NCBI GenBank assembly: GCA_964599075.1
Contig: CAZREG010000003.1
Location: 21,257-85,256, forward strand
Direction of reading: 5' to 3'
Source of the DNA: an uncultured Spirochaetaceae bacterium
GTDB taxonomy: Bacteria; Spirochaetota; Spirochaetia; DSM-27196; SLST01
Length of the DNA stretch: 64,000 bases
Every line of letters starts with the position of its first letter. The first letter of the stretch is position 1. Below, one piece after another: positions 18,056-47,361 of this stretch. The notes under the pieces are model-generated. The model worked only from the letters and a program-made list of their open reading frames with translations, was not told where the DNA came from and made no database searches. Both the position numbers and the translations under genes were made by a program.

Positions 18056-18554
18056 TCTGTATCAGGCTGAGCACCACAAAGAGCGTGAGCAACATGACGG
18101 CCAATAACTGCAGGCGAAGCGTAACGGCAACTGCTGAAAGGGAGAAAAGTGCCGTGAGAATGCCCACCACCAGCAGATGGAACAGGTGAGTGATCCAGAC
18201 CGCCCGCTGCGCAGCCGGCGAACTTCCAACGGGAAAGCGGCGTACCAGACGGTCCAGGTCAACGGTTGCCACCAGCGTTAGCGCTCCGGTAATGGAGAGC
18301 CAGAGCAAACTCTCACGAAAGCCCCAGACCAGCAGCAAGCCCAGTACCAGATAGAGCGGTGCGACTACCTGGTCACTTCGCGCGGGGAACGTACGCCAGA
18401 GCGTGATGCCCGCCGCCGGTACCATTGCGGCTATCGCTACACCAACCCAGTTGCCGACCACTCCCTGGTGCACTCCGGCTGCTGCAGCCGTCAGGATAAG
18501 AACAAGATCCCGTGCCAGTCGGACTTGGCGAAAGAGAGCGCTCGAACGGCTCAT
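17979..18554 (-). CDS. polytopic membrane protein, unknown function (last gene of MoxR module A)
   Basis: 191 aa with about 5-6 hydrophobic helices and an acidic C-terminal tail. 4-nt overlap with the upstream DUF58 gene. Its 3' end overlaps the methyltransferase by 77 nt. Confidence 0.5.
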   Translation of the reverse strand: MSRSSALFRQVRLARDLVLILTAAAAGVHQGVVGNWVGVAIAAMVPAAGITLWRTFPARSDQVVAPLYLVLGLLLVWGFRESLLWLSITGALTLVATVDLDRLVRRFPVGSSPAAQRAVWITHLFHLLVVGILTALFSLSAVAVTLRLQLLAVMLLTLFVVLSLIQIMRSIYQGQPEAPADEEAEQSPPGQ

Positions 18555-19819: not shown

Positions 19820-19821
19820 CG

Positions 19822-20775
19822 TCAGATGACCGGGACTCTGGCGTTGGAGATAACCGCGTCCACAACCTCCCGCGCGGCATTTTCCCGCATCCAGAGCTCC
19901 GGAGAGAGTACCAGACGATGCACAAGAGCGGGAGGTGCGGAGTGCTTCACGTCGTCAGGAATCACAAAGCCTCTCCCGTTTATTGCCGCGAGCGCCCGGG
20001 AGAGTTTCATGATTGACAGAGATGCGCGTGGGCTCGCCCCCACGCTGATACCGTTGTGGTGGCGAGTACGCTGCACAAGATCAACAATGTACGCCTCAAT
20101 GTCCTCATGGACCCCGACCTCCTCAACGAGCTCCCTCATGCCCTCGATCTCCTCTGCTGAGGCGACTGAGTGGATGTCAAACGCATCAGCTTTGCGCTCT
20201 CGGCGGTTGCGAAGGATAGCGCGCTCGGTTGCCGCGTCCGGATAGCCCAGGGAGAGTTTGATCAGAAAGCGGTCTAGCTGCGCCTCCGGGAGCGGAAACG
20301 TGCCCTCATACTCAATCGGGTTTTGGGTGGCGAGGACGAAGAACGGCTGCGGGAGCGGATGGGTCTCTCCCTCGAGTGTCACCTGTCCCTCCTGCATAGC
20401 CTCAAGGAGCGCGCTCTGGGTTTTGGGACTCGCTCGGTTGAGCTCATCCGCCAGCAGAACATGGGTGAACACCGGCCCCTTTCGCAGCTCGAACGCCCCG
20501 GTCTCGCGGTTGTATACTGAACCTCCGGTGATGTCAGCGGGGAGCAGGTCCGGAGTAAACTGGATTCGGGTGAATGCCAGGTCCATCGACCGGGCAAGTG
20601 AGCTCGCCAGAAGGGTCTTTCCCAGGCCTGGGAAGTCTTCAAAGAGTACGTGGCCCCCGGCAAGCATGGCTGCAATAACGGTCCGCACGGTCTCTGACTT
20701 GCCGAGCACGGCCGCCTCCACCGCAGCCTGGACACGGGCAGTAAACTGCTCCACTGGTCTGAACTGATCACTCAT
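19822..20775 (-). CDS. MoxR-family AAA+ ATPase (module A)
   Basis: Walker A DFPGLGKT, Walker B LLADELNRASPKTQSALLEAM, LATQNPIEYEGTFPLPEAQLDRF. Confidence 0.9.
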   Translation of the reverse strand: MSDQFRPVEQFTARVQAAVEAAVLGKSETVRTVIAAMLAGGHVLFEDFPGLGKTLLASSLARSMDLAFTRIQFTPDLLPADITGGSVYNRETGAFELRKGPVFTHVLLADELNRASPKTQSALLEAMQEGQVTLEGETHPLPQPFFVLATQNPIEYEGTFPLPEAQLDRFLIKLSLGYPDAATERAILRNRRERKADAFDIHSVASAEEIEGMRELVEEVGVHEDIEAYIVDLVQRTRHHNGISVGASPRASLSIMKLSRALAAINGRGFVIPDDVKHSAPPALVHRLVLSPELWMRENAAREVVDAVISNARVPVI

Positions 20776-21229
20776 ATGGTTCCTCTATCTGTGACTGAAG
20801 TCTTGAAATAATCGTCCGACAGCGGGGCGGCAGCGGTGCTATCCGCTCATCCACCTCCGCCGGCTCGCCACGTCGCTCCCGGGGTGCGTCGCCAAGATGC
20901 TCCTGTATTGCCAGAACAAGCTCAATGTCACTCAACGCTTCCATAAACGAGCGGCATGCAGCGGTGGAGTAGCCGGAGTAGCCGTTCGCCTGGAGGAGGT
21001 AGGAGAGGCACAGCCGCTCAAGCTCGAGCTCCGAGAAGCGATCTGCCCGCGCCATGGCGATGAGGCTGGTGAATCCGCCTCCATGGCTCACCACAGAGCG
21101 ATGGGCGCGGTCCGGGCGCCCGTCACCGCGAAGAAGGCGAACGGTGACGACACCCGCGTAAGCCAGGAGTCCCAGGACAAGTGGATACCAGTAGAGCCCC
21201 TGTGGGAGAGTGGAGACCAGGTCACGCAT
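20768..21229 (-). CDS. small membrane-anchored protein, unknown function
   Basis: 153 aa with one N-terminal TM (YWYPLVLGLLAYAGVVTV). Overlaps both neighbours (8 nt and 1 nt), which supports co-translation. No motif recognised. Confidence 0.5.
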   Translation of the reverse strand: MRDLVSTLPQGLYWYPLVLGLLAYAGVVTVRLLRGDGRPDRAHRSVVSHGGGFTSLIAMARADRFSELELERLCLSYLLQANGYSGYSTAACRSFMEALSDIELVLAIQEHLGDAPRERRGEPAEVDERIAPLPPRCRTIISRLQSQIEEPYE

Positions 21230-22257
21230 CAGTGCCGCAGAGCCTCCGAGATACCGGTGAGGCAGGCAACTGCGTGCGCCTCATCCTCACGCGAGAGCGT
21301 TATCTCTCCGTAGCGCGCCCGCTCAAAGAGCGCGGTGAGGTCATCTGCATGGGTACGGGATACTCCGGCGGCTATGAGCTTTGCAGCGAACTCACGGGGA
21401 GTCACACTCTGTGGCCTGCCGCTGAAGCGGGTCTCTTGATAGACCTCGAGCATCTCCCGGTAGCAGCTCAGCACCACTGAGAGGACCTCCCGGGAGCTTC
21501 CTGCGTCCGCCGCTCCCTGCGCAGCCTGATCGGCCACTGCCGCCGAGGGATCGGCCATCTGCTGTCTCCGTCGTCGGCCCAGCCTCACGTTGGGGCGCAA
21601 AATGATGAGCAACCCCAGTCCCCCAACAATGGAAACGATCCATGCGACAGGATCAGACGCCGACTGACGGGGCACCGAAACATCCTCTGCGAACTCTTCA
21701 GGCAGCTCCTCGGTGGTACCAAGAGCTCCCTGGCCTATGAGAGTTGGATCTCCCTCAACAAGCTCCGGAGGCGGCTGATCACCGGCCGGGGGAAGCCGGC
21801 TGAATAGAACAACTATGAGACCCAGGATAAGAATAAGGAGCGCGGTCACAATGCGATTCTCTTTTCTCGTCTGTGAGACAAAGAAGAGAACTATGGAAAG
21901 GGTCACTGCAAGGGAGACGAAGCGGCCAAGGACTTCGCCACTGAGCCAGACTCGATCAGTTGAGCGGCTTGTCTCGATAGCTTCCTGGATGCGATCGGCC
22001 TGCTCGGTGGACTGGATCCGCAGTCCTGAGGCAAGCTCAAAGCTGTTTAGGCCGGCGGCAAGGAAAACGAGCCCCAGCACGATAGCCGCGCTGAGTGCGA
22101 TCCTTCTTCTTCCCGAGCTTTGCTGCACCCGGCAGAAAGTATACTTTGAACGGGCGAGAGTAAAGATGACTGCGACCGACGCCCTCATAGCCGAGCTCCA
22201 ACAGCAGAGTGAAATAGATGGAACCTGGAGCGTGAGCTCCGACGAGCTCGGTTCCAT
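21229..22257 (-). CDS. DUF4129-like membrane protein (first gene of MoxR module A)
   Basis: Several TM segments and a C-terminal TPREFAAKL...LTALFERARYGEITLS pattern typical of DUF4129. True start is probably internal: ATG 22188, or GTG 22128 giving MQQSSGRRRIALSAAIVLGLVF. Confidence 0.6.
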   Translation of the reverse strand: MEPSSSELTLQVPSISLCCWSSAMRASVAVIFTLARSKYTFCRVQQSSGRRRIALSAAIVLGLVFLAAGLNSFELASGLRIQSTEQADRIQEAIETSRSTDRVWLSGEVLGRFVSLAVTLSIVLFFVSQTRKENRIVTALLILILGLIVVLFSRLPPAGDQPPPELVEGDPTLIGQGALGTTEELPEEFAEDVSVPRQSASDPVAWIVSIVGGLGLLIILRPNVRLGRRRRQQMADPSAAVADQAAQGAADAGSSREVLSVVLSCYREMLEVYQETRFSGRPQSVTPREFAAKLIAAGVSRTHADDLTALFERARYGEITLSREDEAHAVACLTGISEALRH

Positions 22258-23038
22258 CTATGATCCGGTGGACTACTACCGCGCCTCCTACCAGGTCGAG
22301 CAGCTGGGGGTTGACCGGTACGGCCCGCAGAACGCGGGTGAGTTCGCCGAACTGGTCTCCACCGTCGCTCAGCGTGACTACCGTCCCGAGCTCCGCGCCG
22401 CAGGGCTCTACCTGACCCACGAGGATCGCATCGAGCTCACCGGTCGATTCGTCAGATCAGTCCGGGCAGCCATAGTGCTGCACACACCGGAGCCTGAGAC
22501 CTTTCGTGCCATGCTGCGGCAGTTCCGCCGCTACGATGAGGCAGAGCTTATCTACATTGATACGTTCCTCTCTCCGCAGCGAATCATTTCCCGTTGCACC
22601 GCCGAGTATATCGATGTCAGATCGCCCGATTCCGCAGAGGCCACCCTTCGCGCGACCGTTGAGACCTATCTCAAGTTGCTGCTGCAGCGCCACGTGGTTG
22701 AGATCCGCGCGCTTGGCCAGACACTGTTTGACATCCTCCAGACCGTCGCCCGGGCGGAGGGCCTGCTCCGGGGCCCGACGGCAGATGCATCAGACGGAGA
22801 ATCAGAGACCGGGGATGGCGGCCCCAACGCAGCTGATCCGAACGGTGTTCAAGCGATAACCCGCGCGAAGGGTCTGCTCGAGCTTCGGGGCGTCCGCCTG
22901 ACGCGTTCACAGGTACAGAAGGCGTACCGCGCGAAGATGCGGCGCTACCACCCGGATGTGAATCCGTCCGGGCTTGAGATGGCGAAACGCATCAATCACG
23001 CCTACGGAGTGCTGCTTGCCGCGATCGCGGAGTCCTGA
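22166..23038 (+). CDS. C-terminal J-domain protein with uncharacterised N-terminal domain
   Basis: The last ~65 aa read LLELRGVRLTRSQVQKAYRAKMRRYHPDVNPSGLEMAKRINHAYGVLL, a J domain with HPD. Start set to ATG 22166 because the upstream part of track ORF 21815 is antisense to the DUF4129 gene. Confidence 0.7.
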   Translation: MTATDALIAELQQQSEIDGTWSVSSDELGSIYDPVDYYRASYQVEQLGVDRYGPQNAGEFAELVSTVAQRDYRPELRAAGLYLTHEDRIELTGRFVRSVRAAIVLHTPEPETFRAMLRQFRRYDEAELIYIDTFLSPQRIISRCTAEYIDVRSPDSAEATLRATVETYLKLLLQRHVVEIRALGQTLFDILQTVARAEGLLRGPTADASDGESETGDGGPNAADPNGVQAITRAKGLLELRGVRLTRSQVQKAYRAKMRRYHPDVNPSGLEMAKRINHAYGVLLAAIAES

Positions 23039-23053
23039 CGGCCCGACCGGTCG

Positions 23054-25858
23054 CTACTCTTTTCGTTTTCTCGCAATGTAGATCTTGCGCTCGGCGACCG
23101 GGTTGTGTTCGCCGCCCTCGAACCAGGTGCGGCTGCGAGCCTCCCTGGCTTCCTTCCGGTAGTCCTCTGCAACCTGGCGACGGAGCTCCTGATAGCTTGC
23201 GATCTGTTCTTCCTTTGCAGCCGGGCGGGCCTCCCGTTCACTCTGAACAGACGCCTGCTTCAGCCGGGGCCGTCGCTCCCCCGGGCGTCCCCAGCCTGTG
23301 GTGGCCACGGTTCCAACCGGAAGGATGATTTTCTTCAGGAGAAGCTCAATGACAAGGAGCACCACTGCAGCAATCAGAAGCCCCTTCCAGATTCGATCGG
23401 TGAACAGCCTGCCGGAGATCTCTGCATCAAAGAGGCGATCCGCGCCCTCGAGCGGGAGGAGCTCTCCGTTTCCGCGACGCGCAATCTGGTCAAGCAGTTC
23501 AAAATCTGTGCGAAACTGCAGGTACTCCTGCGCGAACGGAACAGAGAGCCCGTAGGTTCGCGGAGCGTTCTCCGGGTCTCCGAACAGTGTGATAAGATAG
23601 CTGCCCTGTTCACTGGTGCGCACCCGTTGTTCGTACCTGCCGGGCGCCGATTGCCTGAGCGTGACCTCATACGGCTCACCGGCGGGTGGCTGGATCAGCG
23701 CCTTCAGTTCGAGCAGGTCACGAAAGGAGCCATCGGTCTCAAAGGCGTCCACAATGACCGTAGTGCCGCCGGCCTCTCGATCAAACCTGACTACGTAGCG
23801 TCCCGCACCAGGGGGGCGTTGGGCCCAACGAACACTCTGCGCCAGAAGCTGCTGATAGCCCTGCCAGTCGAGCCAGTTGATTCCCCATTTTGCCCGCAGA
23901 TCGGATGTGAACGCGACACTGCGACCAAGACCGTACTGCCAGGCGCTCAACACCGGACTCTCCTGCGTGCCGGAAAGCAGCATCTGCGCTCCATCTTTCT
24001 GATACGTCAGCACAAAGCCCTCCAGCGGTGGAATGTCCTGCTGCGAGATCCCTTCCAGAATTGGGCCGCGGGTCACCACGCGTGGGATAAACGTCTCCTC
24101 CACTATCAGGTCCCGACTGACGATGGTTGTCTCTGCGGCAAAGATGCGCGGCACGCTGCGGGAGTCGCTCGCGTGATAGCTTCTGCCGGCCCCCCGCTCG
24201 GCAATGCTGCGCATGAGCTCCCTGTTTGCGCTCGACCCGACTGAGACCGTACTGACGGTAATTGACTCCTCGGCCAGGGCGTCAATAAGCGCATCAAACT
24301 CTCCGTCGTTCGTGAGACCGTCGGAGAGGACCACCAGATGCTTCACTGCTGCCTCGGTCTCTGCAAGGGTTCGCCGAGCCTCCTCCAGGGCACCTTCGAG
24401 TACCGTACCACCGCCGGACTCAAGACCCGCCAGGTCGTCAATTATGGCGGCGCGATCTCCTGCTCGGGTGACCGGGACCGTCCACTCCCAGTCCGCGTCG
24501 AATGCGATAAGCCCCACGGTGTAAAACGGATTCATGATCTCCACCGCAGAGACAACAGCCTCCTTTACCAGGTCAAGCTTGCTCTCTCCCGAGACCTCGA
24601 TCGCACCCATGCTGCCGGACTTATCTATGACGAATACCATGGCGAGGGATGGAATCCTCATAGTGGAGGTGACATCCATATCCACCGGCATCGCGCGCTC
24701 GACCGGCGTCTGGTAGTAGCCGCCGGCGCCAAAGCTCGCATCCCCTCCTATCATGATAAGCCCGCCACCGGTATCACGGACGTAGCGCTCGAGGGCCTCC
24801 ATCCGCGGGAGCGACATGTCGTAGGCCGGCACATTGTCCAGTATGACCGCGTCATAGGTCACCAGGCCGCCAACTGCTGCAGGCATCTGCTCAACGGTGA
24901 CCGAATCAGCTGCTATTCCCTGACCCGCGAGAGCCCGCAGGACCGGCTCTGCGGGCTCTGCTGCCACGTAGAGGATCGCCGGTTCGCCGGAGACCCGTAC
25001 CAGGGCCTCGTACTCGTTGTTGACGGCAACCGGGTCGCCGGGACTTGAGACCGTGACACTGTACCGGTGAACACCCTCCTGCTCAAAGATCCCCTGAAAG
25101 GCAATCACGTTGTCTCCGGGGCCAAGAAGCACCTGATCCTCTCCGTAGTACTCTCCATCGCGAAAGACCGTAACGGTGGCACGTCGCTGGTCGGAGGCGC
25201 CGATCACCACGCCGAACTCATGGGTCTCGTCTACCCGCACCTCCTGCGGGACGTTTACCGATCGAATAAAGACGTCTCCCTCTCCAGGACGCGCCGAGAG
25301 CGGCACGGCGAAGAGCCTGATTCCTGCGTCCGCCGCTATGCGGGCCGCACGTGCCGCGTCTCCGCGCGTCTGCTGGCCATCTGAGAGGAGAACGATCCGC
25401 CGATCGCGGTCATCCTCAAAGAGCGAGACCGCCCGAAGAATTCCTTCGTCAAGGGAGCTCTCGGAGGCAGAGATCACCGACTCACGTGAAAGCTCTCCAA
25501 GCCCACTCTGAAGCCCCCGTTCCACCGCCGCACCGTCGCCAACAAGAACGATCGCCGCTCTGTCCACGTCACTCCCGGACGCAAGCGAGCGCCGCACGAA
25601 CTGCTCGGCCTGGTCTTCACCGGCCGGTCCAAGACTGTCTGAAACATCTACCACAAAGACGACGTCTATGCCGGGGCTCTGAGCAGACCACTGGAGCCCC
25701 GCTGCCGCGAGGGTAAGCAGAAGGAGCGCGGTCAGCCGCAGCGATAGTGGAATCACGCGACGCATGCCGGGGCGGTTGCGTCCCAGGAAGAGTGCCGCGG
25801 CGGCAAGCGGAAGAAGCACCAGGGCGGCAAGCGCGAGGGGGTAGAGAACTCTCATCAC
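23054..25858 (-). CDS. 934-aa membrane protein with N-terminal double TM, two vWA domains and a C-terminal TM
   Basis: N-terminal hydrophobic pair. MIDAS motifs VVDVSDS and VIDKSGS. A central region (AILYVAA...YDAVILDNV...GGGLIMIGG) resembles a class-I glutamine-amidotransferase-like fold. C-terminal TM LLIAAVVLLVIELLL plus a basic tail. Confidence 0.8.
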   Translation of the reverse strand: MMRVLYPLALAALVLLPLAAAALFLGRNRPGMRRVIPLSLRLTALLLLTLAAAGLQWSAQSPGIDVVFVVDVSDSLGPAGEDQAEQFVRRSLASGSDVDRAAIVLVGDGAAVERGLQSGLGELSRESVISASESSLDEGILRAVSLFEDDRDRRIVLLSDGQQTRGDAARAARIAADAGIRLFAVPLSARPGEGDVFIRSVNVPQEVRVDETHEFGVVIGASDQRRATVTVFRDGEYYGEDQVLLGPGDNVIAFQGIFEQEGVHRYSVTVSSPGDPVAVNNEYEALVRVSGEPAILYVAAEPAEPVLRALAGQGIAADSVTVEQMPAAVGGLVTYDAVILDNVPAYDMSLPRMEALERYVRDTGGGLIMIGGDASFGAGGYYQTPVERAMPVDMDVTSTMRIPSLAMVFVIDKSGSMGAIEVSGESKLDLVKEAVVSAVEIMNPFYTVGLIAFDADWEWTVPVTRAGDRAAIIDDLAGLESGGGTVLEGALEEARRTLAETEAAVKHLVVLSDGLTNDGEFDALIDALAEESITVSTVSVGSSANRELMRSIAERGAGRSYHASDSRSVPRIFAAETTIVSRDLIVEETFIPRVVTRGPILEGISQQDIPPLEGFVLTYQKDGAQMLLSGTQESPVLSAWQYGLGRSVAFTSDLRAKWGINWLDWQGYQQLLAQSVRWAQRPPGAGRYVVRFDREAGGTTVIVDAFETDGSFRDLLELKALIQPPAGEPYEVTLRQSAPGRYEQRVRTSEQGSYLITLFGDPENAPRTYGLSVPFAQEYLQFRTDFELLDQIARRGNGELLPLEGADRLFDAEISGRLFTDRIWKGLLIAAVVLLVIELLLKKIILPVGTVATTGWGRPGERRPRLKQASVQSEREARPAAKEEQIASYQELRRQVAEDYRKEAREARSRTWFEGGEHNPVAERKIYIARKRKE

Positions 25859-27675
25859 GTTCTCCGTGCCCAGATGATCCAGTCGCCGGCCAGAACGAGG
25901 AGCGCCGCCAGAGCAAACAGGTGCCAGAGCGGTCGGCCTGCCCGGTCCGTGTCTCCGGATCGCGCTCCCGGCAGCTCGCGCTCCTGCTCCACTGCCGGCG
26001 TCTCCGGGATCAGGCGGCTCTCCTCACGCGAGGCGACGCTCACCGCGAACCTGCTCGTGAATGATTCTCCGAGCACCCGATAGACTCCCACCTGCTCCGT
26101 GTCTGCAAACTCGAACGGGCTTGTCCGGGGCTGGAAGCGTAGTGGCGTCTCGTCCGGCTGGACAACGAGAACCGCTTCTCCCGGCGGGACGTAGAGCGGG
26201 ACAACAGAGCCGCTGGCGACGTACCCGGCTCCGGCCGCCTCACCGGTTGGAGCGAGCCAGCTGATGATGTTGCTCATAAGAATGGGGAAACTCCCTCGCA
26301 GGGCGATGTCGCTGTCACGCAGATCAAAGAGGAATCCCACCACACTCACCGATTCACCGCGCCAGGCGTAGATAAGCGGGATCTCACCCGCGTTCGCCAG
26401 CACCGTCGCCCGGGGATCGAGCGTTCCGGCAATAGCCGCGCTCACCTGGACTTGTGGGAGCTCTGCGTTCTCAGTGATCGGGTGGACAACGGTTGCTACC
26501 GCCCGATCAACCTGCACCGCGCGCTCGGCCTGGAACGGGCCCTCAGGAAGGGCCGTACCAACGGTGATTACGTTGCCCTGGAGCCGAGCCGGCGCCGGAA
26601 CACCGTCGAGCACGATCAGGTCGTACTCACGCGGTCGGGAGACCTCGTTTGTGATGGTGAGCTCGGTCTCCGGGAAGATCGAGAAGAACGACTCAAGGAA
26701 GAGGTTGCCATTGGTCACCAGCTGCACGCGAACCGGCCGCTCACTTCCTGAGGTTGCGAACGCCACGTCGTCAATGGGAAGCGCGTCCTCATTGCCTACG
26801 AGTTCGCCGGAAAAGGTTCCTCGGACTCCCGGGAAGGTGGCGGTAAGGAGGCGCTCCTCAAACGGTTCAAGAGAGAGGGCTTCTCTTGCGTACTCTTCAC
26901 CCTCCACCGTCAGGCGGAGGGAGAGGGTGGCCGCCTGCGGTCCGAAGTTTGAAACACCAATGAGCGCTTCCGTTTCACCTCCGTCGGGCCGTTCCCGTAA
27001 CTCGAATGCGGTTATGCCACGGTTCGCTGCAGTTGTTCCCACCTGCTCCACGATGTAGCGCGTAGACCAACGCTCAAACTCAGTGATCCGGGAAGCACCT
27101 GAGGCATCCGTGATCAGCACAACGTCCGAGTTCCTGCCCCCCTCAAGGCCGGTGATGAGATCGGCCAGGCGGTCCAGATTATTCGTTCCTCCGGTGGGCA
27201 GGAGCGCTGCAAGCGTATCAGAGACTGACTGCATATTCGTCGTAGGGGCAAGGAATACCGATGGGCTCTCGCCGGTTCCTACAAGCGTGACCCGCTCGGA
27301 TCGGCTTGAGGCTGCCAGCGCTGAGGCCCGGCGCACCGCCAGGGAGAACGAGCTCTCACCACGGGTCTGTGCCTGCATGCTCGCGCTTGTGTCGAGCACC
27401 AGGATCAGCTGATCTGCGCCGGTGATACCGGATCGCACTCGTGAGGGCTCACTGAGGGCGAACGCCGCTGCAATGACCGCCAGAAGTTGCAGGAGCAGGT
27501 GAATGTTGCGCAGCAGCCGCGGCCTGATCCGGCGGGACGACTGGTCGGAGATCTCTCTCCAGAGGTAGAGCGAGCTCACCAGCTCACGCCGCCGTTCCTG
27601 CCGAAAGAGATGGAGAAGCACGATCACGGGGACGGCAGTGAGTAGCAGGAAGCCGAGCGGGTTCGCGAAGCTCAT
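25855..27675 (-). CDS. BatA-type N-terminal double-TM domain protein with vWA domain
   Basis: MSFANPLGFLLLTAVPVIVLLHLFRQERRRELVSSLYLW matches the aerotolerance-regulator (BatA) N-terminal domain. MIDAS LVLDTSAS. C-terminal TM LFALAALLVLAGDWIIW. Confidence 0.8.
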   Translation of the reverse strand: MSFANPLGFLLLTAVPVIVLLHLFRQERRRELVSSLYLWREISDQSSRRIRPRLLRNIHLLLQLLAVIAAAFALSEPSRVRSGITGADQLILVLDTSASMQAQTRGESSFSLAVRRASALAASSRSERVTLVGTGESPSVFLAPTTNMQSVSDTLAALLPTGGTNNLDRLADLITGLEGGRNSDVVLITDASGASRITEFERWSTRYIVEQVGTTAANRGITAFELRERPDGGETEALIGVSNFGPQAATLSLRLTVEGEEYAREALSLEPFEERLLTATFPGVRGTFSGELVGNEDALPIDDVAFATSGSERPVRVQLVTNGNLFLESFFSIFPETELTITNEVSRPREYDLIVLDGVPAPARLQGNVITVGTALPEGPFQAERAVQVDRAVATVVHPITENAELPQVQVSAAIAGTLDPRATVLANAGEIPLIYAWRGESVSVVGFLFDLRDSDIALRGSFPILMSNIISWLAPTGEAAGAGYVASGSVVPLYVPPGEAVLVVQPDETPLRFQPRTSPFEFADTEQVGVYRVLGESFTSRFAVSVASREESRLIPETPAVEQERELPGARSGDTDRAGRPLWHLFALAALLVLAGDWIIWARRT

Positions 27676-28550
27676 CGGACGAAGACCCCCCTGCGAAGGT
27701 ACGAGAATACTACGTCCTCGAACGGCACCGCCGTGGATGTGCGCAGGTACTCAACACTGTGGCTGAGACAGAACGTCTCCGCTTCACCAAAGAACTCGCT
27801 CAGTCGCCGTTGATACGCCTGCACGGTCTCAGGCTCCACATTGAGCTCACTCTCTTCCTCGGTCTCCCCGTCGATCAGTCGCAACGGCCCCCGCATCTGA
27901 GGATCAAGCTCCTGCTCATCCATGACCTGGATCAGCATGATATCGAACTTGCGGTAGATGAGCGCACGCAGGCCATCCTGGTAGCCGGCGGGGTCAAGGA
28001 GATCGGTGATGAGGATTGCGAGGCCGGGACGGCGGGTTCGAAGCGAGTAGTCTTTGAGGGCACGGTTGAAGTCGGTCTTGCCGGAAGGACGAAGATTCTC
28101 CACGTAGTCAAAAATGGAGAAGACACGGCTCTTCTGGCGAACCGGCGGGAGGGAGTGCTCAACGCCCTCCGCGAATGCGCTCAGGCCCACCCGATCGAGG
28201 TTGTTGACGGCAAGGTATCCAAGAGCGGCCGCCAGTCGACCGGCGTACCAGAGCTTGCCCGGCGAGCCGAACGACATCGATCTACTGGTGTCTATGAGGA
28301 TGTGAACCGTCAGGTTCTCCTCAGCGGTGAAGATCTTCACGAACAGCCGGTTCAGCCGGCTGTAGATGTTCCAGTCGAGATAGCGAAAGTCATCCCCGGG
28401 CTGGTAGAGACGGTAGTCGGAGAACTCGAGCGAGGCGCCGCGGTCGATAGAGATATTCTCACCTCTGCTTGCGCCTGCGCGGATCCTGCGCGAGAGGAGA
28501 GAGAGCTGTTCGAGTCTGTGCAGGAACGCCTCGTCGAACATCTTTACCAC
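27672..28550 (-). CDS. DUF58-domain protein (module B)
   Basis: EFSDYRLYQPGDDFRYLDWNIYSRLNRLFVKIFTAEENLTVHILIDTSRSM is the canonical DUF58 core. Confidence 0.85.
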   Translation of the reverse strand: MVKMFDEAFLHRLEQLSLLSRRIRAGASRGENISIDRGASLEFSDYRLYQPGDDFRYLDWNIYSRLNRLFVKIFTAEENLTVHILIDTSRSMSFGSPGKLWYAGRLAAALGYLAVNNLDRVGLSAFAEGVEHSLPPVRQKSRVFSIFDYVENLRPSGKTDFNRALKDYSLRTRRPGLAILITDLLDPAGYQDGLRALIYRKFDIMLIQVMDEQELDPQMRGPLRLIDGETEEESELNVEPETVQAYQRRLSEFFGEAETFCLSHSVEYLRTSTAVPFEDVVFSYLRRGVFVR

Positions 28551-29557
28551 TATCGCGCCTCCGGCGTGCTCTCTAACACTCGAGTGACAATGGAGTCCGG
28601 GTCCACTCCTTCCGCTTCGCCCTGGAAACTGAGAATAAGCCGATGGCGGAGCGAGGGTAGCGCCGCCGTTCGAACATCGTCAAAGCTCACGGTGTAGCGA
28701 CCGTCGAGCAGCGCGTACACCTTGGCTGCGAGGATAAGACTCTGGGCGCCACGCGGACTCGAGCCGTAGCGAACAAATCGCTTCACTTCATCCGGAGCCG
28801 TCTCAGTGTCCGGGTGAGTCGCGAGTACCAGCCGAGCGGCGTACTGCTTGACGACCGTAGAGGCCGGCACCGAGCGGATGAGTGCCTGGTACTCGGCAAT
28901 CTGGGATGCGTTGAGCACGGTGCTCAGTGGGCCCAGGTCACTACCGGTGGTTCTGTCTATGATGGTGAGAAGCTCGTCCTCCAGGGGGTATCCTACCTTC
29001 AGCTTGAAAAAGAATCGGTCAAGCTGTGCCTCCGGCAGCGGGTAGGTTCCCTCCATCTCAATGGGGTTCTGGGTGGCAAGGACAATAAAGGGAGGCCCGA
29101 GCGGATAGGTCTGCCCGCCGACCGTTACGTTCTGCTCCTGCATCGCCTCCAGAAGTGCACTCTGTGTCTTGGGCGTCGCCCGGTTGATCTCATCCGCCAG
29201 GACAACCTGTGAGAATACAGGCCCTTTCTGGAAGGTAATAAGCTGATTCCCCTCCTCATCTCTGACAAGCACGTTTGTGCCTACGATATCCGCCGGCATG
29301 AGGTCCGGAGTGAACTGGATCCTCGTGGTGGTGAGATCGAGCACGTCACCGAAGGTCTTGATGAGAAACGTCTTACCCAGACCAGGAACGCCCTCGAGAA
29401 GTGCATGTCCGCGGCACATAAGGCAGACGACCACCTGTTCCATGAGGGTCCGGTGGCCAACAATGTAGCGGCTCATCTCTTCCTGAACCGATCGGATGGT
29501 TGTACCTGCCTCCAGCGCTCGCTCTTCAATCTGCGGGTTCCCGTTACTGTTGCTCAT
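28550..29557 (-). CDS. MoxR-family AAA+ ATPase (module B)
   Basis: Walker A GVPGLGKT, Walker B VLADEINRATPKTQSALLEAM, LATQNPIEMEGTYPLPEAQLDRF. Confidence 0.9.
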   Translation of the reverse strand: MSNSNGNPQIEERALEAGTTIRSVQEEMSRYIVGHRTLMEQVVVCLMCRGHALLEGVPGLGKTFLIKTFGDVLDLTTTRIQFTPDLMPADIVGTNVLVRDEEGNQLITFQKGPVFSQVVLADEINRATPKTQSALLEAMQEQNVTVGGQTYPLGPPFIVLATQNPIEMEGTYPLPEAQLDRFFFKLKVGYPLEDELLTIIDRTTGSDLGPLSTVLNASQIAEYQALIRSVPASTVVKQYAARLVLATHPDTETAPDEVKRFVRYGSSPRGAQSLILAAKVYALLDGRYTVSFDDVRTAALPSLRHRLILSFQGEAEGVDPDSIVTRVLESTPEAR

Positions 29558-31064
29558 TCCTTTCCTCTTCTGCCACCCGGGTTACTCTCAGGAAGTAGTT
29601 GCGCACCAGCCGCTGCAGCTCCGGTGGCGTCCCCTCCCGTGATATTGCCTGCTCGATTACTCGTTCGAATACAACGTCCCGTTCCTGCTCACTGAGTCCG
29701 GAGGTTGCCTCGGAGGGCAACTCCCGGATAATGACATCCATGATCGTACTATCCGTCACAATGCCCTGAAGCTCGCGAAACACCGGACTTGATTCTTCTA
29801 TTCGTGAGAAGTCGTCTCCTCGCTCGTCCGCTATCGCCATGTCTCCACCCTGCTGGCCCTGGGCGTCCTGATCCGACTGATTGCGCTCCTGCGCCGATCG
29901 CTCGTCCTGATTCTCATCACCACCCTGGGAGATCCCGCTCTCACCCCGCGGACCGGCAGGCAGGTCCTCACCCTGAGTGACCTCCGCAAGACCCTCTCCG
30001 GTCTGCTCCACTACGCGACGACTCTCCCTCAGATCGTTCACAATATCGCTCTCCGCCTCTTCCGATGGGGCAGGGCGGTTCAGCTGGTCCATCAGCTCCT
30101 GCACCTGTTCCCGCTCAAGGCCCAGGTTTGTATCCGGGGCTCTGTCAGGCGTAGCCTCTTCGAGTGCCTCGACCATCTCCGGCACCGTGTTGCCCTCACT
30201 TCGCATGCGGGTGAAGAACTCCTGCACCTCTTGCTCTCCCATTCCACGCTGCAACGCGCTTCGAATGGCTTCTTCTGTCTCCGGTGGAATCACTACGTCT
30301 TCGCTTTGCTCGAACGGGCGGGTACGCTCAATGCTGCGAATCTGCTCCTCAATCCGGCTGCTCAGCTCTTCTATACGCGCTCTCGCCTCCTCGGGATCAA
30401 TCCGGCTCTGGGTAAGCCGGTCGCCGAGCTCCTGCATCTGTCGGGCGAGGTCCTGCAGCACTTCGTTTGCATCTGCCCGTTCCGCGAGTCGCCGTCCCGC
30501 GTCCTGCAGCTCGACTCCCCGCGCAACAACTGCGGGTTGCTCGCTGTCGAACCAGCCGCTGACACTGAGCACAACTGCAATGAGCAGGGCAACCGCCAGG
30601 CCCGCCGCGCTTGCCGCCTGCCCCGGTATCTCGAGGGGATAGACCTGATCGGGCTCCACCTCCGCCACGAACGCATCCGCGCGTCTGCAGACCGCTTGCT
30701 GGAACGCGAGCTCGTCAGCTGAAGCGGGCGCCGCCTTCCCCGTGGATTGCTCAAACTGATACGCTGAGACCAGCAGGGCGTGAGTGTTGTACCGACGGTC
30801 GGCCTCTATCAGAAGTCCGGTGGGTTCTACCCGTTGGACGGCTGCGAGCAGGAGGGTGAGCAGGAGAGCAATTCCTGCGATCACGGTGACAAGCCTTACA
30901 AGCGGGAGGTCCAGGCCAAGTCCAATGTCGGTAACCGTGAGGGCGAGCGAAAGAGCAAGCGAAACGGTAGCTATCCGGGCGCCAAGCGCAAGGATCTGGG
31001 TGATCCGGTAACGAGTGTCGAGCAGACGCACCAGAGTCTCCAGTTGTGTGGGTCTGCTGCTCAT
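29544..31064 (-). CDS. membrane-anchored acidic coiled-coil protein, unknown function
   Basis: 506 aa. Two N-terminal TMs, a third at about aa 150-170, then a long E/D/Q-rich helical region and a C-terminal PPELQRLVRNYFLRV motif. 14-nt overlap with moxR. Confidence 0.6.
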   Translation of the reverse strand: MSSRPTQLETLVRLLDTRYRITQILALGARIATVSLALSLALTVTDIGLGLDLPLVRLVTVIAGIALLLTLLLAAVQRVEPTGLLIEADRRYNTHALLVSAYQFEQSTGKAAPASADELAFQQAVCRRADAFVAEVEPDQVYPLEIPGQAASAAGLAVALLIAVVLSVSGWFDSEQPAVVARGVELQDAGRRLAERADANEVLQDLARQMQELGDRLTQSRIDPEEARARIEELSSRIEEQIRSIERTRPFEQSEDVVIPPETEEAIRSALQRGMGEQEVQEFFTRMRSEGNTVPEMVEALEEATPDRAPDTNLGLEREQVQELMDQLNRPAPSEEAESDIVNDLRESRRVVEQTGEGLAEVTQGEDLPAGPRGESGISQGGDENQDERSAQERNQSDQDAQGQQGGDMAIADERGDDFSRIEESSPVFRELQGIVTDSTIMDVIIRELPSEATSGLSEQERDVVFERVIEQAISREGTPPELQRLVRNYFLRVTRVAEEERNEQQ

Positions 31065-31828
31065 TGGTTCCTCCTGTTCGCGAGCGTACGGTGCCGCTGT
31101 AGCACCCCCCAGAATACGCCGGCTAACGCTACCGTCAGGAGTGAGAGTGAGATGACGCCGGCCGTCGCCGCCCCGGTACCGCCCGGCTCAACTCCGGCAA
31201 CCGCACCCGGTGCACCCGCGGCAATCTGCTCAACCGCGGCGACCACCGGATTGAGCGGCCGAAAGAGTCTCAGGGTCAGAACAAAGAAGAGCACTGCAAA
31301 GACCCAGACTCCGATCGTTTTCACGACGTAGGAATCCTCACCATAGTGACTGACAATCATAGCTGCGATGCGGCAGGCCAGGGCTGTGAGGAACACCACC
31401 AGCAAGAGGCCCGGGATGACCCCGATGGGTACACCTGAAGGACCGGCGGCGGCGACCAGCACCGGGATGCTGAGGGCAGTCAGGAAGGCAGTGTGGAGCG
31501 TCGCTGCCATTAGCTTGCCGGCGACCAGCGAGCGGACCGGCACGCGGGTGCGCTCAAGCCACTCGGAATACCGGATGATGCCGGCCGAGCCAATCCGATC
31601 CGTTCCTGCAGAGAAGCTGAAGAATCCGGAGAGAATTATCAGGAACACCACATTTGCCAGGAACACCAGCGGGACCGTCTCCATGCGGAAAAAGTACATG
31701 TAGCCTCGCGAGGGCCAGGCAATGACGAGAAACAGAGCAAGCAACACCAGGTACCCAACGTGGAGCTTCAGAAACCCACGGCTTCGGATGTAGAGCTCCG
31801 CTGATTCTTCCAGGACTGGATTTTTCAT
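31061..31828 (-). CDS. six-TM integral membrane protein (ABC-2-permease-like), unknown function
   Basis: 255 aa with about 6 hydrophobic helices. 4-nt overlaps on both sides. No cognate ATPase is adjacent. Confidence 0.55.
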   Translation of the reverse strand: MKNPVLEESAELYIRSRGFLKLHVGYLVLLALFLVIAWPSRGYMYFFRMETVPLVFLANVVFLIILSGFFSFSAGTDRIGSAGIIRYSEWLERTRVPVRSLVAGKLMAATLHTAFLTALSIPVLVAAAGPSGVPIGVIPGLLLVVFLTALACRIAAMIVSHYGEDSYVVKTIGVWVFAVLFFVLTLRLFRPLNPVVAAVEQIAAGAPGAVAGVEPGGTGAATAGVISLSLLTVALAGVFWGVLQRHRTLANRRNQ

Positions 31829-33747
31829 GAGGATGTTCCTGTTGTGGTGTCCGCGGGCTCATCCAGCCAGACCGGTATGGTGAGTACGCCCAGACCAAGC
31901 GTCCGGGAGAATGGTGGGGATATCTCCACCGGGATAAGTTCCTCCTCAAGCCAGGCAACTACCATAATACTCGGAGCGCGCTCGTCTGCAAAATATTGAC
32001 TGCGGCCAATGTCACCGAGCAGCCGAATCCGATTGGGACGCAGCTCTCCCTCATCAACGTAGGCGTCCCAGTCAATCGCCTCAAAACGGGCTACCGGGTC
32101 CGGTTCCGCAACGACCTCCACTGTTTCACCCGGTTGCAGATCTCCCACCCGCTGCGGAAAACCCCGATGGATGAAGGTAATTCCCCTCAGCGTGAGGTCA
32201 CTCTGGTTCTGAAGGGTGATCACGGCAAACGCCGGGTCTTCCTCCACGTCCACCCGGAGTGCCAGCGGTACCAGGTCTATCGCGAGAGCGTTGCTGTGGC
32301 CCCAGCTCTCGGTCTCAAGAACGGCAACGCGTGAAGCGGTCCGTTCGCGTATCATCTGGTTTTGATTGTCCAGCGGCATCACCAGCGGTCGGCTTGGGTA
32401 AGAGAGCTCGTAGCGACCCGCCTGACGGCTGAACAGCACACTGTCCCGCGTCACGGAGGCGTACTGCTCACCCGGACGCAGATTGACCCGTTCAAGCGAA
32501 AACGCGAGCGCCTCGTCCGGCTGGAGGCTGACGGTGAGAGCCAGATGTGCGGTCCCCGCTACCAGCGTGATCGCCAGCAGCACCAGCGGCAGCCCCAGCA
32601 TGCGTCGCGCCGCCGACCGCCCGCGCTGTAGCCAGAACAGGAGCGTCCCCAGCGCAATCAGGTAACTGACGAACAGGCCGATCACCAGTCCATGACCGGG
32701 AAACTGGTAGACCGGTAGAGCAAGCTGATTCGCCATGAGCTCGTCCTCGAATACGCGGCGGCGCATCTCGGTTGCGATCGGGTTAAGCGCTGAGCGATCC
32801 GTGAGAAGGGCACTCCAGAGCGCCACGCTCGACAGCGGGGCAACCCGCACCAGATTCACGTAGTCGAAGGGAAGAAACACGATATCGCCGGCGCCGACTT
32901 TAGTCCGTGAAACCTGTTGACCGTACTCCAGCGTAGCTCCTACAACAACCTCCCGCGTCCTCTCGACCGGCTCGAGAGGAAGACCCGCCTCCAGCAGCCC
33001 CACAGACTCAACCGTCCGGAGGTCTATCCCCGCCGGAGTGAGAGAGATGAGCGGTGCAAGTGCCTGCGAATCCGCCGGACCGAGGTGCGTGCCACCGGAG
33101 ATAACAAGGCGGCCACCGGCGGCAATCCAGCTCTTGATAGCCTGCGTCTGCCCCGTTGAGAGTTCCGCGAGCCGGGCATCCTGAATCACCAGCACATCCA
33201 CCCCGTCGTAGCCGTGCCAGTCGTGCGGAAGGAACTCAATAAGGGGATAAGCGATATCAAGCGCCCGCTCCTCCCGAGAGTTGAACAGCGGCAGCAGGAA
33301 GTCCAGATTGGGCCGTCTGGCCAAGACCGTAACCAGACGGCCGGGCGCACTCTTGCCGGAGAGCTCAATCTGCTGCTCAAACACCAGCTCATTCTCCTCT
33401 CGTATCTGGAGCACAACCGGGTAGACCGTCGTTTCAAGCGGCAGAACAAAGGAGAATGCCTTGCTTGCTCCTGAAACGAGCTCGAGGTCCCGGGTATACT
33501 CAACCGTTGTCCGGTCGTCTCCAAAACGGTTCCCGCGCGCTACCCGGACGGACAGGGTCCCGCGTATGTCCTGGCCCAGATTCTGGGTGAAAATGCGAAC
33601 GGGAGTCCACGCGCCGGCCCGAAAGACACCGCTGAACCCAACGGCAGCATCTACAGAAATTGAGGAGTGCTGCTGTGAAAAGGCCAGAGATCCTGAAGCG
33701 CACAGAAGGATCAGGAGCATGAGTGATCGGTTCACTGGCTTAAACAT
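31825..33747 (-). CDS. large secreted/membrane protein, unknown function (first gene of module B operon)
   Basis: Start chosen at ATG 33747 (MFKPVNRSLMLLILLCASGSLAFSQQ, a signal peptide); the track start is 33822. Has a segment VDVLVIQDARL..IKSWIAAGGRLVISGGTHLG and two central TMs. Confidence 0.6.
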   Translation of the reverse strand: MFKPVNRSLMLLILLCASGSLAFSQQHSSISVDAAVGFSGVFRAGAWTPVRIFTQNLGQDIRGTLSVRVARGNRFGDDRTTVEYTRDLELVSGASKAFSFVLPLETTVYPVVLQIREENELVFEQQIELSGKSAPGRLVTVLARRPNLDFLLPLFNSREERALDIAYPLIEFLPHDWHGYDGVDVLVIQDARLAELSTGQTQAIKSWIAAGGRLVISGGTHLGPADSQALAPLISLTPAGIDLRTVESVGLLEAGLPLEPVERTREVVVGATLEYGQQVSRTKVGAGDIVFLPFDYVNLVRVAPLSSVALWSALLTDRSALNPIATEMRRRVFEDELMANQLALPVYQFPGHGLVIGLFVSYLIALGTLLFWLQRGRSAARRMLGLPLVLLAITLVAGTAHLALTVSLQPDEALAFSLERVNLRPGEQYASVTRDSVLFSRQAGRYELSYPSRPLVMPLDNQNQMIRERTASRVAVLETESWGHSNALAIDLVPLALRVDVEEDPAFAVITLQNQSDLTLRGITFIHRGFPQRVGDLQPGETVEVVAEPDPVARFEAIDWDAYVDEGELRPNRIRLLGDIGRSQYFADERAPSIMVVAWLEEELIPVEISPPFSRTLGLGVLTIPVWLDEPADTTTGTSS

Positions 33748-33785
33748 ACTTTGACCGCAGCGTGCCCGAGTAGTGTCCCGCACGT

Positions 33786-35036
33786 GTGGGGGTGCTTGAC
33801 CCGCGTCCGTTCCTCTCTCCATACTATCCCCACAATCTCGAGAGGTATTTCTTGCTCGTTCGTTACTCCAAAGACACGGCGGGACGCCATGTCCGCCAGG
33901 CCGTCATTTACACAAAAGAAGAACACGGCATCTCTTCCGACTCTGTCGATGCTGATGCGATCAAGATCATCAAGCGACTGCGCGGTGCCGGTCACCACGC
34001 CTACATTGTTGGCGGGGCGGTTCGCGATCTGTTGATCGGAAAGAATCCGAAAGATTTTGATATTGCCACTGATGCCCAGCCCAACCGGATTCGCAGGCTC
34101 TTTCGTAACTCACGGATCATTGGTAAACGTTTCCGATTGGTGCATATCTTCTTTGGCCCCAAGATCATTGAGGTCTCCACCTTTCGCAGTGAGACGTCAG
34201 CCGGCTTTCAGAATGAGTACGGCGACATAGAAGAGGACGTGTTCCGGCGTGACTTCACCATCAATGCTCTCTACTACTGCCCGATCGAGGACCGGATCAT
34301 CGACTATGTGGGCGGCGTGAAAGACGTCCGGGATCGCAAGGTCCGCAACCTCATCCCGCTTGACCGCATCTTTGGCGAGGATCCTGTTCGTATGATCCGC
34401 GCCATCAAGTATGCCTGCACCACCGGATTCACGCTCATCGGCAAGCTTCGTCGTCAGATCAAGCGCTCGGCTGATCTGCTGTCGGAAACGCCGTACAGCC
34501 GAATGACTGAGGAGGTGTTCAAGATTCTCCTCTCCGGTCGTTCAGCAGAGATTGTCTCCCAGTGCATCAAGATGAAACTGTTTGAGCACATGCTCCCGGA
34601 GTTCCACGCTCTGCAGGTGGGTAATCGAGACTTCGAAAGGCAGCTGACCGGTCGTCTCGCGGATCTTGACCGGGAGGTCAGGGACGCCGGTGAGGATCGC
34701 CGGTCCCGGGCAATTGCCTATCTCTGTGCCGACTATCTGTTTGCGCATACGGAGGTGGGAAGCATGAGTCGCATTCCATTCGCCGACGGCTTCTCTGAGT
34801 TGAAGCGTGTCATCAAGCCGATTGTGCCGGCGAACAAAGAGGTTGAGATGGCACTGGTCTACCTCATCCGACGCCGAAAGAATTACACCAAGCTTGGAAA
34901 ACTTGAGACCGTGCCACCGGGCGAACGCGAGCGGGTGGAGGATCAGCCGTGGCGTCATGAGGATGACCCGGATGCGCCGAAGACCAAAAAAAAGAGGCGC
35001 CGCAAGCGACGCCCCCGTTCAAAATCAGACTCGTAA
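33786..35036 (+). CDS. pcnB: poly(A) polymerase I / tRNA nucleotidyltransferase family
   Basis: AIKIIKRLRGAGHHAYIVGGAVRDLLIGKNPKDFDIATDAQPNRIRRLFRNSRIIGKRFRLVHIFFGPKIIEVSTFR closely parallels my recollection of E. coli PcnB. Lys/Arg-rich C-terminal tail. Confidence 0.85.
   Translation: MGVLDPRPFLSPYYPHNLERYFLLVRYSKDTAGRHVRQAVIYTKEEHGISSDSVDADAIKIIKRLRGAGHHAYIVGGAVRDLLIGKNPKDFDIATDAQPNRIRRLFRNSRIIGKRFRLVHIFFGPKIIEVSTFRSETSAGFQNEYGDIEEDVFRRDFTINALYYCPIEDRIIDYVGGVKDVRDRKVRNLIPLDRIFGEDPVRMIRAIKYACTTGFTLIGKLRRQIKRSADLLSETPYSRMTEEVFKILLSGRSAEIVSQCIKMKLFEHMLPEFHALQVGNRDFERQLTGRLADLDREVRDAGEDRRSRAIAYLCADYLFAHTEVGSMSRIPFADGFSELKRVIKPIVPANKEVEMALVYLIRRRKNYTKLGKLETVPPGERERVEDQPWRHEDDPDAPKTKKKRRRKRRPRSKSDS
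34986..35013 (-). terminator. candidate rho-independent terminator of the TPR gene, embedded in the pcnB tail codons
   Basis: On the minus strand, an imperfect GC hairpin (35013-34996: GGCG, mismatch, CG, loop CTTG, CG, mismatch, CGCC) is followed by TC and T8 (34993-34986). It sits 27 nt after the minus-strand stop at 35040. Confidence 0.4.
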
Positions 35037-47253: not shown

Positions 47254-47361
47254 ACACTATACTAATCGGCAGGTTACGCGTATCCCTCAGCAATTCAAAA
47301 TGTGAGGCGGGTGGAAGCCATGGCATGCTTTCGCTATACTCGCGGTACGACTGGAGGAATC

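Follow-up and report, generated by a model that had tools for sequence, protein, structure and literature searches.

Related systems of the bacterial envelope

Gene clusters of the Bat type, which encode a MoxR ATPase together with DUF58 and VWA proteins, are present in all spirochaete families, and their function has not been established (PMC3557215); indeed, the function of the classical Bat system itself is unresolved (PMC3557215, PMC5700661). The BatA-type protein BB0173 of Borrelia resides in the inner membrane and has its VWA domain in the periplasm, and cmd mutants of Rhizobium show envelope defects (PMC5700661). MoxR and vWA proteins have together been read as an engine for unfolding or remodelling and an adaptor that binds the substrate (Zhang and Aravind 2012, PMC3495828). 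Here, we describe an operon of this kind from an uncultured Spirochaetaceae bacterium (assembly GCA_964599075.1, contig CAZREG010000003.1, positions 21,257 to 85,256; this stretch of 64,000 nucleotides (nt) is referred to as the window). At the head of the operon lie three genes, g1, g2 and g3, which represent three uncharacterised protein families. Our tentative reading, to which we give slightly less than an even chance, is that their products are inner-membrane subunits of one Bat/Cmd-like envelope complex with the four proteins encoded downstream, and that g2, a protein of putative ABC-2 fold, works in it without an ATP-binding cassette (ABC) motor.

Two further groups of described systems resemble the locus. 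In archaea and some bacteria, DUF4350 proteins, which are GldG-like at an HHpred probability of 99%, are encoded with MoxR, DUF58-type vWA, immunoglobulin (Ig)-domain, five-transmembrane (5-TM) and 2-3-TM proteins, and the arCOG01314 (DUF4350)-MoxR-vWA set was predicted in 2015 to form a novel complex for secretion or membrane remodelling (Makarova, Galperin and Koonin 2015, PMC5898192). A link between GldG-like DUF4350 proteins and MoxR plus vWA proteins had thus already been predicted and is not new. The other group consists of the gliding-motility ABC-2 transporter GldA/GldF/GldG and the related "ABC-type uncharacterized transport system", in which, as for g2 and g1, a six-TM ABC-2-fold protein stands beside an anchored amidotransferase-like protein. 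Among open-access papers and preprints, none was found that places an ABC-2-like protein in a MoxR-DUF58-VWA operon.

Organization and conservation of the operon

The operon consists of seven genes, given here with window positions:

31825..33822, minus strand: g1, open reading frame (ORF) from the ORF list and its translation; taken as 31825..33747 in the initial annotation
31061..31828, minus strand: g2, 255 amino acids (aa)
29544..31064, minus strand: g3, 506 aa
28550..29557, minus strand: MoxR-type AAA+ ATPase, AAA_3 and AAA_lid_2 (Pfam AAA_3, E 1.9e-60)
27672..28550, minus strand: DUF58/vWA-type MoxR partner without a TM segment (Pfam DUF58, E 1.1e-41; VWA_2, E 3.6e-8)
25855..27675, minus strand: 606-aa protein with the BatA N-terminal double-TM domain, a VWA domain and a C-terminal TM segment (Pfam BatA, E 3e-14; VWA_2, E 3e-12; TIGR02226, E 2.8e-4)
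23054..25858, minus strand: 934-aa VWA/GATase1_like membrane protein with two VWA stretches, the final gene of the operon (Pfam VWA, E 1.5e-32; GATase1_like, E 1.9e-15)

The ORF list and translations agree with the initial annotation, which was made from the sequence alone, in placing g1, g2 and g3 as three minus-strand ORFs within 29544-33747 at the operon head; its word "giant" for g1 overstates a protein of 640 aa. Genes overlap by 1-14 nt at all six junctions (4 nt for g1/g2; 14 nt between the start of the MoxR gene and the stop of g3), and for this reason the seven genes look translationally coupled. A promoter and terminator scan revealed no convincing sigma-70 promoter before g1 and no notable internal terminator. 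The start of g1 is ambiguous, with ATG codons at 33822, 33747 and 33720. The start at 33747 yields the 640-aa protein with the N-terminus MFKPVNRSLMLLILLCASGSLAFS, and that at 33720, picked by gene callers in four metagenome copies, a protein of 631 aa; the first ATG (33822) gives 665 aa and would overlap a divergent poly(A) polymerase-family gene, which begins at 33786 on the other strand. The control region between this gene and g1 is therefore very short or overlapping.

The order g1-g2-g3-MoxR-DUF58-BatA/VWA-VWA/GATase is shared by 12 of 13 independent g2 contexts, which come from Spirochaetota, Thermodesulfobacteriota and one further lineage, and thus from at least two phyla. Co-occurrence of g1-g3 with MoxR and DUF58 across genomes, proposed as a test in the initial annotation, is hence borne out as synteny. 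The order is found in seven loci of Spirochaetota metagenome-assembled genomes (MAGs), as far as the contigs extend (L006-L012), in two loci of high GC content with a g2 of only 22-31% identity (L005, L013) and in a MAG of the Spirochaetales that represents another g2 sub-cluster and has a g2 of only about 20% identity. It is also seen in a 'Deltaproteobacteria' MAG (L018), in a locus from the g2 cluster that includes Ca. Adiutricales (Thermodesulfobacteriota; L019) and in L020. L017, a frameshifted long-read contig with six of the seven genes recognisable, is counted among the 12. Hidden Markov models (HMMs) confirmed the g1- and g3-like flanking proteins of distant loci as homologues. Among the spirochaete loci, MoxR and DUF58 are about 80% identical and g1-g3 40-55%. 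The window itself stems from microbial-mat metagenomes; proteins identical to those it encodes are found on ENA and JGI mat contigs, and the nearest relatives come from Spirochaetota MAGs. When the HMMs of g1-g3 were run against all ORFs of the window, no paralogues were found.

The sole exception to the order is L016, where a g1 homologue (E 4e-43) adjoins g2 and the rest of the operon does not follow. Since this locus has the pair without the other operon genes, g1 and g2 are the tightest unit. In L016 (1-10328, GC content 43%), the pair is preceded by a gene truncated by the contig end, whose repeat protein has more than 2085 aa and is by eye rich in cadherin-like repeats, and by a PDDEXK_2 gene; TIR-domain and PP2C genes lie downstream on the opposite strand. 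In L018 (5366-9700), a single protein of 1444 aa combines the BatA-N/VWA with the VWA/GATase1_like protein, and this fusion is a Rosetta-stone hint that both act together. In L017 (8200-13200 of a 1.2-Mb contig), each of the genes g1, g2, g3 and moxR is spread across two or three reading frames, and P0203 (705 aa), which was considered as a g2-g3 fusion, was dismissed as an artefact of these frameshifts.

For a comparison with Bat/Cmd systems we used Bacteroides fragilis BatI, Borrelia BB0170-BB0176, Leptospira Bat and Rhizobium leguminosarum cmdA-D. The operon shares with them the succession of MoxR (AAA_3), DUF58 and BatA-N double-TM/VWA membrane proteins, as well as the spirochaete setting. 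In contrast to these clusters, it carries g1-g3 upstream and the 934-aa VWA/GATase1-like protein, and a Pfam scan found no family of BatC (TPR), BatD or BatE (SH3) in any of the seven operon proteins.

g2, a putative ABC-2-fold protein

Hydropathy analysis of g2 reveals six hydrophobic helices. The protein matches no Pfam family at E<=10 and no NCBIfam model, and searches of PDB sequences with the g2 family profile returned nothing significant. A template-free AlphaFold model built from 24 sequences (predicted local distance difference test (pLDDT) 82, predicted TM-score (pTM) 0.80) comprises six TM helices, preceded by an amphipathic helix at the N-terminus; the TM2-TM3 loop contains a further helix, and a short one lies between TM5 and TM6. 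In a Foldseek search of the PDB with this model, ranks 1 to 33 were all taken by ABC-2/type V transmembrane domains, among them those of PmtCD, ABCG2, NosY, ABCG5/8, ABCG25, KpsM, ABCA7, Wzm and CcmB, with a query-normalised TM-score (template-modelling score) of up to 0.68 and E-values of 0.03-1 (best 0.026). This agrees with the resemblance to an ABC-2 permease that had been noticed from the sequence.

Relatives of g2 were collected by a word-indexed search of 5.8 billion proteins (4 relatives) and by profile (23). At E<=1e-3, a full scan with a HMMER profile over 1.84 billion cluster representatives defines a family of 331 clusters, whose members have about 250 aa; the best 150 of the 331 range from 82 to 289 aa, apart from one protein of 705 aa. 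P0143, a divergent member, gave no match when used to scan metagenomes. Among the best 150 relatives, there are eight matches to four models of the ABC-2 clan, namely ABC2_membrane_3 (best E 5.7e-6), ABC2_membrane_5, ABC2_membrane_4 and ABC_export; ABC2_membrane is matched by one of ten close relatives (E 0.42). Ten divergent relatives scanned singly against Pfam showed no ABC-2 match. The most conserved features of g2 are:

31514..31606, minus strand: predicted cytoplasmic TM2-TM3 loop, aa 75-105, with conserved G75, D77, E89-W-L-E-R-T94, P97, S100 and G104-K105
31490..31495, minus strand: H112-T113 in TM3 (helix 98-119), His in 74% of 139 full-length relatives
31370..31372, minus strand: R153, membrane-embedded in TM4 (helix 135-162), 88% conserved

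Further hallmarks among the 139 full-length members are W38-P39 (93% and 96%), P122 (99%) and G132 (82%). The TM2-TM3 loop is the best-conserved stretch of the family, and its motif is visible in divergent members, too. In ABC-2 permeases, a loop with the pattern ExGTxE...TPxSR...GK forms the region that contacts the nucleotide-binding domain (NBD). By eye, the g2 loop is co-linear with this pattern (G75-x-D...E89...T94-x-x-P-x-x-S...G104-K105). In hhalign comparisons of the g2 profile with the window permease encoded at 1371-2561 and with E. coli YadH, the equivalent loop was aligned at an insignificant E of 0.07-0.12, which gives a positional hint only.

We compared g2 with the solved type V exporters ABCG2 (5njg), NosY in NosDFY (7o12/7qba), PmtCD (9q1y), KpsM (8tsi), Wzm (7k2t) and CcmB (7f02). 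They have in common the six-helix fold, the length, TM-scores of 0.50-0.68, the N-in/C-in orientation, the amphipathic N-terminal helix and the external helix between TM5 and TM6; however, sequence identity is 9-19%, and the solved exporters all use an ABC ATPase, none being linked to an AAA+ protein. It could be objected that g2 is unrelated to ABC-2 proteins, that the likeness reflects generic six-helix convergence or a modelling artefact, and that g1-g3 are lineage-specific membrane proteins. The empty Pfam and PDB profile searches, Foldseek E-values no better than about 0.03 and the insignificant hhalign scores would fit this objection. On the other hand, the 33 best structural matches are without exception type V domains, aligned over their full length to a confident template-free model, eight relatives find the ABC-2 clan, and hhalign picks the equivalent loop twice; we thus regard convergence or artefact as very improbable. 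We conclude that g2 belongs to the ABC-2 fold superfamily as a highly diverged member and falls into no described family.

Search for an ABC ATPase partner

A Pfam scan of the operon proteins found no ABC ATPase and MoxR as the sole ATPase, as had been noted initially. The two ABC ATPases of the window were used as phmmer queries against the ORFs of 12 non-redundant loci, with flanks of 10 kb where the contig allowed. No ABC ATPase ORF was detected within 10 kb of g2 in these loci; only the two window queries themselves were recovered, as positive controls. Among the best 150 of the 331 g2 family members, none is fused to an NBD. ABC-2 permease genes normally adjoin the gene of their ATPase, and each of the two window ATPases indeed has its own permeases alongside. 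One system (518-2561) consists of an ABC-2 ATPase (518-1378) followed by a 396-aa NatB-like ABC-2 permease (1371-2561); in the other (52159-55471), which is LolCDE-like by reading, the ATPase gene (53226-54119) lies between those of two FtsX/MacB_PCD permeases.

These data bear on a conventional explanation, according to which g1 and g2 are the auxiliary protein and the permease of a GldAFG-type ABC-2 transporter whose ATPase is encoded elsewhere, and the placement in a MoxR operon reflects a shared envelope pathway. This would account for the type V fold of g2, for the loop pattern (E...TPxS...GK) that its best-conserved element retains, for the GldG/DUF4350-like nature of g1 and for the occurrence of the g1-g2 pair alone in L016. 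However, an ATPase gene is missing from the vicinity of g2 in 12 loci of at least two phyla, which departs from the usual adjacency of permease and ATPase genes, and the pair in L016 lacks an adjoining ATPase as well. We consider this explanation unlikely, though it is the alternative to which we give most weight.

g1, a predicted periplasmic protein with an amidotransferase-like domain

The g1 model, calculated by AlphaFold from 31 homologues, has a pLDDT of 87 and a pTM of 0.83. The following elements can be distinguished, with aa positions in the numbering of the 631-aa form:

33676..33747, minus strand: signal peptide MFKPVNRSLMLLILLCASGSLAFS (hydropathy, N-terminal helix in the model, homologue alignment)
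33346..33660, minus strand: Ig-like beta-sandwich, aa 21-125 (seven strands in the model)
32803..33339, minus strand: alpha/beta domain, aa 128-306, class-I-glutamine-amidotransferase-like/DUF4350/DUF7408-like (Pfam; alternation of strands and helices in the model)
32527..32694, minus strand: central TM hairpin, aa 343-398 (hydropathy; model helices 343-366 and 370-398)
31870..32514, minus strand: beta-rich C-terminal region with a small alpha/beta element, aa 403-617 (secondary structure of the model)

The signal peptide and the central TM pair, which the initial annotation had described, are both seen in the hydropathy scan and in the model. Since the Cys is not conserved among the homologues, the signal is more likely of the signal peptidase I type than a lipobox, and a lipoprotein was ruled out. 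Both halves flanking the TM hairpin are predicted to lie in the periplasm. For the C-terminal region, no Pfam or NCBIfam family was found. A Foldseek search of the PDB with full-length g1 yielded TM-scores of about 0.11, driven by beta-sandwiches of transglutaminases and macroglobulins, which supports the domain type only; g1 as a transglutaminase was rejected on these grounds. A search of PDB sequences with the g1 family profile gave nothing significant.

A GldG-type amidotransferase-like fold had been suspected from the stretch VLVIQDARL...AAGGRLVISGG, and this stretch forms the core of the alpha/beta domain. The g1 protein of the window matches Pfam DUF4350 (PF14258) over aa 176-283 at E 1.5e-4 to 1.6e-4, with 22.4-22.6 bits compared to a gathering threshold of 30.4. 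Within the family, DUF7408 is matched by all eight members and DUF4350 by seven of the eight at E<0.1 (best E 2.3e-6), all below the Pfam thresholds. The suspected fold finds support in these sub-threshold matches; the homologue P0053 bears a precomputed PF14258 match. An hhalign comparison of this region with the GATase1_like region of the 934-aa operon protein gave E 7.9e-4 at a probability of 25%, and a comparison of g1 with the BatA/VWA family detected no relation. The alpha/beta domain is presumed to be non-catalytic because no Cys is among the invariant columns, and a catalytic amidotransferase activity of g1 is, judging from the alignment, unlikely.

How does g1 compare to its described counterparts? 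It matches neither of the GldG models (PF09822, at E<=10 in Pfam; TIGR03521, at E<=0.1 in NCBIfam). It does fit the description of a GldG-type protein, as it has a membrane-anchored amidotransferase-like domain, is predicted to be periplasmic and adjoins the gene of an ABC-2-fold protein. The g1-g2 pair differs from GldAFG in the lack of a GldA-type ATPase and of a PF09822/TIGR03521 match, in the additional Ig-like and beta-rich domains of g1 and in its MoxR/DUF58/VWA partners. Likewise, g1 fits the description of an arCOG01314-type protein, which has a signal peptide, an extracytoplasmic domain and a TM anchor and is encoded with MoxR and DUF58/vWA proteins. The two systems share the signal-peptide protein with its flavodoxin-like/GldG-like extracytoplasmic domain and TM anchor, MoxR, the DUF58-type vWA protein, and also the Ig-like domains and the 5-TM and 2-3-TM proteins of the arCOG01314 set. 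In contrast to the arCOG01314 protein, g1 has a DUF4350 match that stays below threshold, and its architecture differs in the TM hairpin at its centre and in the size of its C-terminal half, which is large; in the archaeal set, the 5-TM proteins were not identified as ABC-2-like, and BatA-type proteins are not included.

g3, a three-TM protein with a conserved C-terminal motif

According to hydropathy and alignment, aa 24-76 of g3 form a TM hairpin and aa 150-168 TM3, with a conserved basic loop in between (aa 77-149, with LLIxADRRY); about 340 aa of conserved blocks follow, with a variable low-complexity linker between them. No Pfam, NCBIfam or PDB match was found, including a family-profile search of PDB sequences. 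The length of 506 aa, the three TM segments and the conserved-looking C-terminal motif that had been described are all present. The motif is defined by invariant columns:

29592..29627, minus strand: C-terminal signature PPELQRLVRNYF of g3, P480-P481...V487-R488-x-Y490-F491

Its family form, IPxxxxxV[KR]xYFxxIG, is kept across phyla in the loci L005, L013, L018, L019 and L020. The positive-inside rule would put the N-terminus and the loop of aa 77-149 in the cytoplasm and the long C-terminal part in the periplasm.

The acidic stretch emphasised in the initial annotation is real in the window protein, where 24.6% of residues 181-440 are D+E; yet it is largely a trait of a Lys-poor, acidic proteome and is absent from homologues elsewhere, in which D+E about equals K+R. 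The notion that acidity matters to the function of g3 as an anchor was therefore rejected, as the acidity is not kept outside the lineage of the window. Across the whole window (47 non-overlapping long ORFs), the mean content of Lys is 2.4% and that of Arg 8.6%. Lysine avoidance is uneven: many lineage-specific proteins have 0-1% Lys and housekeeping-type proteins 6-7%, and extreme cases are g3 (0.2%), the BatA/VWA protein (0.0%) and the ORF at 45949-47256 (0.0%).

A possible envelope complex and its energy source

From gene order and models, we infer one complex of seven proteins, the membrane topologies of its subunits, the lack of an ABC ATPase partner and a role of MoxR. In such a complex, g1 and g2 would form a GldG/GldF-like pair. 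g2, probably a dimer as are other ABC-2 domains, would provide a transporter-derived membrane core without a dedicated ABC nucleotide-binding subunit; g1, tethered by its TM hairpin, would cover the periplasmic side of g2 with its Ig-like, presumably non-catalytic amidotransferase-like and beta-rich parts. g3 would serve as a three-TM anchor with its basic loop in the cytoplasm and its long C-terminal part, including the IPxxxxxVKxYF motif, probably in the periplasm. The BatA-type VWA proteins may join g1, g2 and g3 from the periplasmic side. Any energy would be supplied by the cytoplasmic MoxR AAA+ ring via the vWA adaptor DUF58; this module would assemble or remodel the complex instead of driving ABC-type ATP hydrolysis. 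Candidate docking sites are two loops, the conserved cytoplasmic one of g2 and the basic one of g3, as well as the tail of the 934-aa protein.

Several observations weigh against this tentative reading. Support for an interaction of the proteins is indirect, and the Foldseek E-values of g2 are weak despite its high TM-scores. The g1-g2 pair of L016, with neither g3 nor MoxR alongside, may be an autonomous module. The best-conserved loop of g2 is the one that contacts NBDs, which fits an ATPase partner encoded elsewhere equally well or better, and H112 and R153, being conserved and embedded in the membrane, point to a site for a substrate or ion more than to a passive scaffold. The conservation of this former NBD-contact loop and of the membrane His and Arg thus argues against a merely passive role of g2; they fit either an ATPase partner, as the conventional transporter would have it, or a repurposed docking or substrate site.

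The idea put forward in the initial annotation goes further, in that MoxR and DUF58 would dock on the cytoplasmic loop of g2 and drive conformational cycling of the ABC-2-fold domain. The strict operon linkage and translational coupling of g2 and g3 with MoxR across phyla speak for such a coupling, as do conserved cytoplasmic elements in g2 with no NBD there to bind. However, no precedent for it is known, a hexameric AAA+ ring differs in geometry from a dimeric NBD sandwich, and MoxR and DUF58 are encoded in very many operons without an ABC-2-like protein, so that their generic role needs none; moreover, the support comes from gene order. We regard MoxR-driven cycling of g2 as improbable. Equally doubtful, in our view, is the bolder proposal that the g2 family has lost its ABC ATPase for good and that the MoxR ring operates g2 directly, or via DUF58 and the g3 loop; with the periplasmic g1, BatA and VWA proteins, they would form a new class of AAA+-driven trans-membrane machine for envelope assembly or export. 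If this were true, H112 and R153 would mark the path of a substrate or ion.

The possibility that the locus is an anti-phage defence system was also considered. PADLOC defence models gave chance-level matches only (E about 1e-3, 14-17 bits), and this candidate was rejected.

Neighbouring features of the window

A second MoxR module lies directly downstream of the operon (17979-22257, minus strand), beyond a plus-strand DnaJ-like gene (21815-23038). It encodes a DUF4129 membrane protein (21229-22257), MoxR2 (19822-20775), a DUF58 protein that has TM segments at its N-terminus (18551-19819) and a 191-aa membrane protein without a family. The two MoxR proteins share 43% identity. MoxR clusters of the DUF4129 type usually include a DUF4350 protein, and the sole DUF4350-like protein near this module is g1, in the neighbouring operon. 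The adjacency of the two modules recurs in L001 and L008 and is not seen in the distant loci. In HMM comparisons, g1-g3 are not detectably related to the 191-aa protein or to the true ABC-2 permease of the window.

The FtsX/MacB system mentioned above is preceded by an SRP54-type GTPase gene (50352-51227), FtsY-like by reading. Between this gene and the first FtsX-type permease lies a 311-aa ORF (51227-52162) with no Pfam match and with 14.6% Arg, 18.9% D+E and 0.3% Lys. Translations read by eye suggest a mevalonate pathway at 4771-9958 (minus strand), with GHMP-type kinases, diphosphomevalonate decarboxylase, HMG-CoA reductase and type 2 isopentenyl diphosphate isomerase. Between 38000 and 44000, the AT skew of the plus strand is -0.23 to -0.28, which coincides with plus-strand membrane-protein genes that include subunits of the Rnf complex, as seen in the matching metagenome contig; the skew is probably a codon or hydrophobicity effect.

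Concluding remarks

MoxR-DUF58-VWA operons of the Bat/Cmd type are among the most widespread bacterial gene clusters still without a mechanism. The variant with g1-g3 adds to them a transporter-derived membrane core and a GldG-like periplasmic partner and may thereby turn the vague label of "aerotolerance/envelope" into a testable idea, namely a membrane complex around an ABC-2-fold protein that would work without the motor usual for this fold. The signatures of the three families (WP...HT...P...SG...R...NP for g2, IPxxxxxVKxYF for g3 and an alpha/beta core of the type GYD-VD...D...GGxLV for g1) could seed family models. If the ATPase-less state of g2 is true, it would mean that an ABC transporter domain has been reused outside an ABC system, and a MoxR AAA+ protein would thereby gain a client or partner that is defined. 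The g1-g3 cluster does not yet establish a new principle; it is a good entry point into the MoxR-vWA systems of the bacterial envelope.

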